64,000 nucleotides of DNA from Escherichia phage kaset, in sequence record PV245935.1. One strand, given 5' to 3'. Below the pieces are notes generated by a model. It did no database searches, had not been told where the DNA came from, and worked only from the letters and a program-made list of their open reading frames with translations. Made by a program: the position numbers and the translations under genes. Positions within the stretch are counted from its first letter, which is position 1, and each line of letters starts with the position of its first letter. Positions 58,389-58,990 of this stretch are shown here, piece after piece.

Positions 58389-58649
58389 CCTGTTGTTTGT
58401 GAGTTTTTATTATCGGATAAAGCGATTGATTTGTGTAAATCTATTAGAGGATGGTGGGCCGTGAGGATTGTGACGTGAATTTTGTGTCTTGAATATGTGT
58501 TCGAATTTGGAAGAATATTGTACTGTGGTGCTGTGGGATTGGAGAGGGAATCACTAGGTTTTGGGGCGTGTACCGTGGTGTGTGGGCCTGTAGGCTGCGC
58601 CGTGTCTGGGATTGCCGCTTGAAATTAAAAAGGAGATATAGTTAGCTGG

Positions 58650-58990
58650 CTAACCTTACGTATAGAATTTAAGCGTATAATGACGTAAGATTTGGACCTA
58701 TCCGTAGTTCACTCCACACACTTCTATGGTGCGCCGCGACTGGGTTCAATGGTACATCTTACGGATGATACGGATGATACGCGTCGCCGCTATACTTTAT
58801 ACAACTTTGAAAAAAACAATTAACTCCATTTTGAATTAATTTAAATTAATTTTTTTCTACATCCTCATACTTATACTAAAATTATATTTATACGTATTAT
58901 CCGTAAGATATAAATAAAAACAAAGACTTGCGGCAATACGGATGATACGCCATGATACGCTTCAGCCAGCCAGCAGCGGCTAAGTCATTG
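58650..58990. repeat. noncoding region with ACGGATGAT repeats and CGTATAATGACGTA box (copy B of the 6.6 kb element)
   Basis: GCGTATAATGACGTA at 58679-58693; CTTACGGATGATACGGATGATACGCGTCGCCGCTATACTTTAT at 58758-58800 near-identical to 6669-6712; further half-sites at 58711, 58888, 58939. Confidence 0.7.

Follow-up and report, generated by a model that had tools for sequence, protein, structure and literature searches.

In the 64,000-nt stretch of Escherichia phage kaset DNA analyzed here (sequence record PV245935.1; hereafter the window, to which all coordinates refer unless stated otherwise), a G+T-rich, C-poor non-coding tract on the plus strand (58386..58620) separates the terminator of a rightward operon from an iteron-bearing element and the adjoining small terminase subunit gene (terS). 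We tentatively propose that this segment is strand-polar, cis-acting non-coding DNA that forms the outer left arm of the terminase cleavage/packaging region, a reading that we favor while holding it at somewhat less than even confidence. The tract probably helps to define or process the genome ends. Tracts of this kind lie at both cuts of the terminal repeat on the same strand, one of them containing the cut, and are absent from a second copy of the iteron element (copy A), which argues for a part in the terminus or packaging apparatus.

The window belongs to the genus Wifcevirus, being 97% identical to phages vB_EcoM_WFH (WFH) and ECML-117, and the rest of its map was placed by the large terminase, portal, capsid, DNA polymerase and primase genes. 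Homology to relatives with mapped ends assigns to it a direct terminal repeat (DTR) of ~3.67 kb at 58828..62497. The linear records of WFH and WFC, which include a terminal repeat of ~3.7 kb (Korf 2019), begin with ATTTTGAATT and ATTTTAAAAA directly after ..AATTAACTCC, that is, between the equivalents of 58827 and 58828. For Mansfield a 3,673-bp repeat was determined by PhageTerm; its record was opened at the PhageTerm boundary and the last base is the equivalent of 58827. The 3,533-bp PhageTerm repeat of Ro157lw, assigned to the PhageTerm class ‘T5-like long DTR’, begins at the base equivalent to 58828. The predicted left DTR edge, with AATTAACTCC on its left and ATTTTGAATT on its right (CTCC/ATTTT), is concordant in these four independent records, and the CTCC/ATTTT boundary is common to 18/18 Wifcevirus genomes fetched. 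Because the mapped ends of the relatives fall between 58827 and 58828, the element that the initial annotation had called iteron copy B corresponds to the physical left genome end. As judged by homology, the left cut is inside this element, within an A+T-rich centre (58800..58925, 82% A+T) delimited by composition and by the relatives’ ends. That the element is a terminal-repeat boundary beside terS had been overlooked in that annotation. The right DTR end, between 62497 and 62498 (GGGTCTTT/TGGTGCG), is concordant in WFH and Mansfield; in the WFC record the repeat ends 83 nt further right, so the deposited WFC boundary is probably imprecise.

The first gene within the repeat is terS (59188..59661, plus strand), 360 nt from the left DTR edge. 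It is annotated in Mansfield, and by its match in the PDB (7UXE, E = 9e-33) its product is related to the TerS of Pseudomonas phage E217. The features of a packaging-initiation region, namely an end mapped by homology, an adjoining terS and repeated motifs flanking the cut, were found together at this locus.

The tract lies 210-440 nt leftward of the terminal-repeat boundary and is the composition extreme of the 64 kb. At 58390-58620 the base fractions are A 0.182, C 0.113, G 0.346 and T 0.359, with a G+T content of 0.706 (70.6%) and a GC skew of +0.51. This G+T value is matched only by 231-nt intervals starting at 58372-58392 (0.03% of all such intervals in the 64 kb), and the absolute GC skew only by those starting at 58255-58424. 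The initial annotation had described the segment as G+T-rich and C-poor, and it proved to be the most G+T-rich 231-nt stretch of the window; its skew could have been like that of other intergenic regions, yet both G+T and skew are extremes of the 64 kb. The annotation had also listed no open reading frame (ORF) of 60 aa or more, and indeed the longest ORF within the tract has 46 aa, with another of 40 aa. The terminator proposed to end the rightward operon was found as well (58364..58385, plus strand): GGGCCAATCGGCCC forms a hairpin of -14.1 kcal/mol followed by the T-run TTTTTGTTT, and the WFH record carries an annotated terminator at the equivalent position.

A G+T content of at least 0.75 over 60 nt is reached at three places in the 64 kb, two in the tract and one at 62445..62532. 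The latter, a second plus-strand tract conserved in WFH, WFC and Mansfield, straddles the right DTR boundary. Both DTR edges are therefore marked by a G-rich, C-poor tract, on the plus strand each time. G-poorer DNA follows past each cut: on the left a C+A-rich patch at 59035-59090 (G+T 0.39), and ~150 nt past the right cut the segment 62642-62741, which is the third most C+A-rich 100-nt interval. Around the right edge, ~500 bp of non-coding DNA (62100-62640) contain the direct repeats CGCGTAAGTC(C/G)TTGTTTTATA (two copies), TCGAATCATT (three copies) and AAATTTGCAGTACACT (two copies).

The same architecture is found in three genera that share no sequence similarity at this locus. In Serratia phage MTx (Myosmarvirus), PhageTerm gave a repeat of 3,566 bp, and a terS homologue lies at 443-832. 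Its primase gene is followed by a terminator, ~180 nt of extreme G+T content, inverted ACGAAAAC repeats and the boundary, in this order. The MTx left arm reaches 87% G+T per 60 nt, and the top G+T interval and the top positive GC-skew interval of the whole genome (68.6 kb) both lie in it. Positive GC skew peaks in two 100-nt intervals of this genome: 68316-68415, which ends shortly before the left boundary, and 3485-3584, which contains the right boundary (3566); the most negative one, 244-343, is just inside the left end. The tract at the MTx right boundary is purine-rich, and the trait common to all the tracts is high G with low C. In Pbunavirus E217, the DNA upstream of terS comprises a terminator, a G+T-rich segment, an AT-rich centre and a long C-rich stretch, in that order, and its AT-rich centre has in common with that of the window an AATTAAT..AATTAAT motif. 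A C-rich stretch just inside the left end and upstream of terS was noted in all three phages (58962-59085 in the window, 110-310 in MTx locus L022 and 1455-1785 in E217 locus L023).

Conservation across related phages, a check proposed in the initial annotation, was assessed in 18 Wifcevirus genomes, which fall into sequence classes that megablast does not align with each other. Composition was kept at the same relative position in every one: the best 200-nt interval had G+T 0.645-0.73 and C 0.045-0.09 and started 384-486 nt left of the boundary (18/18). By megablast, in turn, the window-type tract was matched fully in some records only and partly in Bas98/Bas99, and about half of the records aligned only from the iterons rightward. 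In the window-type class, variable columns made up 18% of the tract, 5% of the terminal element and 10-12% of the flanking ORFs; the segment 58650-58850, with one variable column per 50, is far more conserved than the flanking coding DNA. Taken together, these comparisons indicate that it is the composition of the tract, not its sequence, that is conserved as a feature flanking the terminus. The last ORF before the tract (57894-58346, 150 aa) is swapped for an unrelated ORF of ~177 aa in about half of the genomes, and the mosaic breakpoint of this replacement ends exactly at the iterons. A Pfam search with the flanking ORFs gave no matches.

The kind of substitution also differs between the tract and its surroundings. 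Among two-allele sites of the window class, 13/32 were G<->T in the tract vs. 7/96 in the neighboring ORFs (Fisher p = 4e-5), and in the WFC/Bas100 class the corresponding shares were 8/31 vs. 2/44 (Fisher p = 0.013). This excess means either that changes which keep G+T are tolerated or that G->T damage is frequent. The second possibility would suit a tract without function, i.e., an unconstrained spacer shaped by strand-biased damage (C->T, A->G, G->T) to whichever strand is frequently unpaired close to the ends. Such an origin agrees with the high sequence turnover (18% vs. 5% variable columns), with the predominance of G->T over T->G among changes polarized by majority rule (16 vs. 4) and with the third-position G+T of the two nearest ORFs, the highest on that strand (0.56-0.58). 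We regard it as distinctly improbable, since the third positions of these ORFs are only slightly shifted in comparison to the 0.71 of the tract, since conserved motif islands persist within the tract, and since the architecture recurs in three genera without shared sequence here. One such island, nearly invariant within the variable tract (58406..58451; two variable columns in the alignment of 7 window-type genomes), includes the palindrome CTTTAT..ATAAAG and ATTGATTTGTGTAA; its ATTGATTTG recurs at 58982-59000 (direct-repeat family D1).

Between the tract and terS, repeated motifs are arranged around the left cut. The sequence ACGGATGATACG occurs with 0-1 mismatch at 58761, 58770, 58893 (minus strand) and 58938, and elsewhere only in copy A (6629-6887); with up to two mismatches allowed, 15 matches were found vs. 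3.8 expected. On the left, two exact tandem 9-bp iterons, ACGGATGAT ACGGATGAT ACG (58761..58781, plus strand), are present only here and in copy A. The right-hand iterons (58893-58904, minus strand; 58938-58949, plus strand) take part in the inverted repeats I2, I8 and I9. The iterons of the element that the initial annotation had termed an iteron/TATAAT element are therefore real. Its ‘TATAAT’ (58675), however, belongs to a degenerate iteron, GCGTATAATGACGTA (58671..58687), that forms inverted repeat I6 with 58946-58962; the WFC/Bas100 class has TATCAT in its place, and the search gave no acceptable -35 to go with it.

Further out, a CGTG-N3-CGTGGTG motif marks the inner end of the tract (58567..58580, plus strand) and is kept across sequence classes. 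Its inverted partner lies in the short C+A-rich patch on the other side of the cut (59045..59061, minus strand); within inverted repeat I4, 58569-58585 pairs with 59048-59064 at 88% complementarity. Relative to the boundary, the CGTG doublet, with 7-nt spacing, is found at -261/-254 in window-type genomes, at -254/-247 or -255/-248 in the WFC/Bas100 type and at -349/-342 in RCIP0319; Bas98/Bas99 are without the pair, and the motif is recognizable in all other classes. The CACG partner is at +221/+228 or +220/+227 in 6/8 genomes checked. A GCGCCG..CTGGG box, likewise kept across classes, is present in two plus-strand copies (58591..58610 and 58725-58744; direct-repeat family D3, 80% identity). 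From the leftmost position toward the cut, the order is thus G+T arm, CGTG-N3-CGTGGTG, GCGCCG..CTGG box, iterons and A+T-rich centre, and right of the cut there follow iterons, the inverted CGTG motif and a short C-rich patch. The pairs I2, I8, I9, I6 and I4 form a rough dyad around the cut, centred at 58811-58833.

Copy A (6588..6915) has 193 columns identical with copy B and lies between head-morphogenesis genes and the prohead protease gene. Its layout is like that of copy B, with boxes (one related to the GCGCCG..CTGGG box opens it), inverted iterons and an AT-rich centre, but it has no G+T-rich flank. In MTx, a 350-bp non-coding gap (16657-17014) is syntenic with copy A. The iterons of copy B adjoin the 82% A+T region, as an iteron-type replication origin would require, and morphogenesis genes lie downstream of copy A as well as copy B, so that either copy may have a part in regulation or act as an origin.

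A strand bias beyond any duplex-level property suggests that the arm is read strand-specifically, by an enzyme that tracks one strand. Duplex-level causes (bendability, Z-DNA) were rejected by argument, as they leave the strand bias unaccounted for. Candidate readers of a single strand would be a DNA translocase or nuclease, a recombinase acting on resected ends, or RNA polymerase together with Rho. Our preferred candidate is a translocating or cleaving terminase, moving toward or away from the cut. The tract may then mark or slow the approach to each cut, like the polar signals cosQ or the FtsK orienting polar sequences (KOPS), while the iterons and the CGTG dyad would provide sequence-specific binding sites. 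A wider form of the proposal, in which G-rich, C-poor tracts are orientation-specific signals that tell a translocating terminase where to slow or cut across several PB1-like genera, would follow by analogy and is quite improbable as it stands.

The packaging-region reading is supported by the terminus records, the adjoining terS, the tracts at both edges, their replicates in MTx and E217 and the kept composition, and further by the G<->T excess, the dyad around the cut, the constrained segment 58650-58850 and copy A, which is without the arm. Several points weigh against it. The link to terminase would be one of position. The left tract is 210 nt from its cut, while the right one contains it, so the two need not act alike. 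A review states that E217 TerS did not bind DNA appreciably in vitro. The predominance of G->T changes could reflect strand-specific DNA damage instead of selection. Finally, the arms are retained in Pbunaviruses, whose genomes are reported to be circularly permuted, so that a function tied to exact terminal-repeat boundaries need not be assumed.

The initial annotation had pointed to a signature of Rho utilization (rut) on the complementary strand. According to this explanation, Rho would load on the C/A-rich leftward RNA across 58620-58386 and stop transcription at the hairpin (58384-58364) or beyond it. The rightward operon would thereby be protected at its 3′ end, the intrinsic terminator and the rut site forming a two-way stop, and 62445-62532 would do likewise for leftward transcripts entering the repeat. 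The described composition was confirmed: over 240 nt (58386-58625) a minus-sense RNA would contain 82 C, 27 G, 86 A and 45 U with 43 pyrimidine-C (YC) dimers, and the tract holds the longest contiguous rut-like stretch of the minus-sense strand (58379-58610). This RNA would be almost unstructured (minimum free energy -21.6 kcal/mol over 240 nt) and, having no conserved ORF, untranslated. A hairpin lies directly downstream for leftward transcription in Wifcevirus, MTx and E217, and it is composition that is constrained rather than sequence, as expected of a rut site; the high-G, low-C plus strand common to all tracts, the purine-rich one at the MTx right boundary included, fits as well.

What the rut explanation requires in addition is a leftward transcript. 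The only repeatable strong sites in our search for conserved promoters into or out of the tract were two overlapping sigma70-type promoters upstream of terS (59107..59153, plus strand; TTGAAC-17-TATAAT and TTGAAT-17-TATAAT). Rechecked in eight genomes, TTGAAC-17-TATAAT was intact in five and had one -35 substitution in Bas101, Bas100 and Bas99. To the right of the tract the search gave no conserved leftward promoter; in the interval up to terS, the top minus-strand candidates had 8.0-9.1 by a position weight matrix with which 237 plus-strand sites of the window score at least 8. As for other promoter-like sequences, at 58820-58882, TTAACT-16-TAAATT spans the cut and TTTTCT-18-TAAAAT (58853-58882) overlaps a TATACT (58872-58877), all of them weak; TATACT also occurs ~30-50 nt right of the MTx boundary and in the E217 AT-rich centre.

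Pbunavirus 14-1 is the only relative with mapped transcript ends. ONT-cappable-seq of this phage identified the sigma70 starts P040 (59399, plus strand) and P041 (59807, plus strand) in its own coordinates. The 50 nt upstream of P040 are identical to E217 L023:1200-1249, which is the AT-rich centre. In 14-1, transcription from the AT-rich centre runs rightward, across the C-rich arm and into terS, rather than leftward via the G+T arm. No minus-strand start was mapped in 14-1 between 54251 and 60949, and leftward reads from P043, which belongs to the operon beyond terS, reach 59828 at most. In the window, moreover, an intrinsic terminator (~59705-59672) already serves the leftward operon of the repeat.

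The rut signature is also not specific, because ~16 other sites on the minus-sense strand pass a simple test and rut-like composition is common on antisense strands. There is no known need for U depletion in a rut site, yet the tract RNA favors A over U, and the place of the right cut inside a tract is left unexplained. Like rut sites such as lambda tR1, the tract would give a C-rich, G-poor, unstructured RNA, untranslated over >80 nt and with a pause hairpin after it; unlike them, it has no transcript known or predicted across it in the required direction, and its RNA is C/A-rich, not pyrimidine-rich. We conclude that the composition fits a Rho-dependent terminator, while its function is unsupported, given the missing leftward promoter, the operon’s own terminator, the 14-1 data and the commonness of such composition. 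Overall, we consider it unlikely. The C-rich, G-poor character of the complementary strand thus stands from the initial annotation, without a conserved leftward promoter or a leftward start in 14-1 to go with it.

The polarity of the tracts could also bear on recombination. An end-protection or recombination signal on single-stranded DNA would limit degradation or promote strand invasion, with the 3′-ending strand being G/T-rich at any end cut at a repeat boundary. A G/T-rich 3′-ending strand is the orientation in which RecBCD reads Chi, and RecA is said to prefer G/T-rich composition (the finding is reportedly that of Tracy and Kowalczykowski, 1996-97). The DNA to either side of the left cut obeys the polarity rule, as does that at the right cut. 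In MTx and E217, each inner arm contains an exact GCTGGTGG, accompanied by 3 and 6 one-mismatch variants, respectively, in RecBCD orientation from the left end (P < 0.0005 vs. shuffles). In the Wifcevirus inner arms checked there are one or two one-mismatch variants (GCTGCTGG together with GCTGGTTG in 5/7, GCTGCTGG only in the window), and the minus strand of the window has an exact Chi (59835-59842) 1 kb from the left end. The tract itself, however, is without exact Chi (GCTGGTGG), and in no Wifcevirus class are near-Chi octamers of the left arm more frequent than in composition-matched shuffles: one was counted in the window tract (P = 0.29) and none in the WFC/Bas100 class. The single one, GATGGTGG at 58450, is not conserved among close relatives. 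Furthermore, the tract is 3.9 kb from the virion right end and comes near an end only after an internal terminase cut. A recombinational role of the tract therefore appears quite unlikely to us.

A structured non-coding RNA had been named in the initial annotation as an alternative to the rut site, and the covariance-model scan and folding proposed there gave nothing significant. The Rfam scan of the tract at a permissive E-value returned a best value of 0.24, far under the gathering score and at chance level. The plus strand folds more weakly than 193/200 shuffles (z = +1.61), and the minus strand is unstructured by composition alone (z = 0.12 vs. shuffles). In the alignment fold, 0/73 predicted pairs covary and the covariation term is positive. 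A promoter-like TTGCCT-16-TATTAT at 58386-58413 and the tract ORFs of 40 and 46 aa might be taken to favor a transcript or a small protein; yet the former is confined to window-type genomes and absent from other classes. A structured RNA was rejected on the lack of an Rfam family, the fold z = +1.61 and the 0/73 covarying pairs. A small protein was rejected because the ORFs have no ribosome-binding sites, shift frame between near-identical genomes and are absent in RCIP0319. Either product is highly improbable.

Two further repeats were noted. ATTTGCA(C/G)TA is present in 10 copies vs. 0.39 expected (59165-60369, 62522-62531 and 62619-62628), all on the plus strand and inside the DTR or up to 131 nt beyond its right edge, some within minus-strand ORFs; all Wifcevirus loci fetched show the same single-orientation pattern, as does Pantoea phage PA1. 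In the leftward replication-gene region, a 52-nt sequence occurs as a tandem duplicate (33131-33234, 96% identity; family D5).

How long-DTR phages recognize and duplicate their repeat is described as unexplained in a phage genome paper. Composition-defined tracts that mark both repeat edges on one and the same strand, conserved in two genera whose ends are mapped and accompanied by compact iterons and a dyad motif at the cut, would offer a mutable handle on this recognition; if the wider form of our proposal is true, polar tracts would define the boundaries of long terminal repeats. Wifceviruses can be rebooted from synthetic DNA (PMC11074155) and grow on engineered K-12 (BASEL Bas98-101), so that recoding or inversion of the tract is feasible. 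For annotation, the ‘iteron element’ should be read as packaging site and physical end of the genome; small ORFs, present within the tract in some records, appear unwarranted. The terminal repeat and its approximate size are already published. A literature search for G+T-rich tracts at phage terminal repeats yielded nothing relevant; nor did any paper found describe the iteron/dyad layout of the cut region, copy A as its paralogue, or composition-defined tracts at the two boundaries in several genera.

Known systems resemble this region in part. In T7, the terminal repeat is reportedly flanked by the short-repeat arrays SRL and SRR at the concatemer junction, as Dunn and Studier are said to have described in 1983. 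There, as here, a direct terminal repeat has non-coding DNA with repeated motifs to its left and right, beside the concatemer cut sites; the difference is that T7 has short sequence repeats by a 160-bp repeat, whereas the window has a composition-defined, strand-biased tract with few motifs by a 3.7-kb repeat. T5 has long terminal repeats with a repeat-rich ‘injection stop’ region at the inner repeat boundary. Both phages have a long repeat with host-polymerase promoters and repeat-rich non-coding DNA at its boundaries, and the repeat-rich 62100-62640 recalls the inner boundary of the T5 repeat; yet the repeat here is 3.7 kb vs. 10 kb, and two-step DNA transfer belongs to the T5 side of the comparison.

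The SPP1 pac region consists of pacL-pacC-pacR, and that of lambda of cosQ-cosN-cosB. As in these, the cut in the window lies between repeated motifs, here predicted to bind protein, adjoins terS and has putative polar signals upstream; unlike in these, the iterons are inverted 9-bp repeats and a paralogous copy lies far from any terminus. We know of no G+T-rich arm described for SPP1 pac or lambda cos. Polar G-rich signals are found in genomes as Chi with its GT-rich islands and as the KOPS of FtsK. The tracts are like these in that the G-rich strand runs 5′->3′ toward a defined processing site from both sides, and unlike them in that no octamer is enriched in the Wifcevirus left arm and that the reader here is putative.

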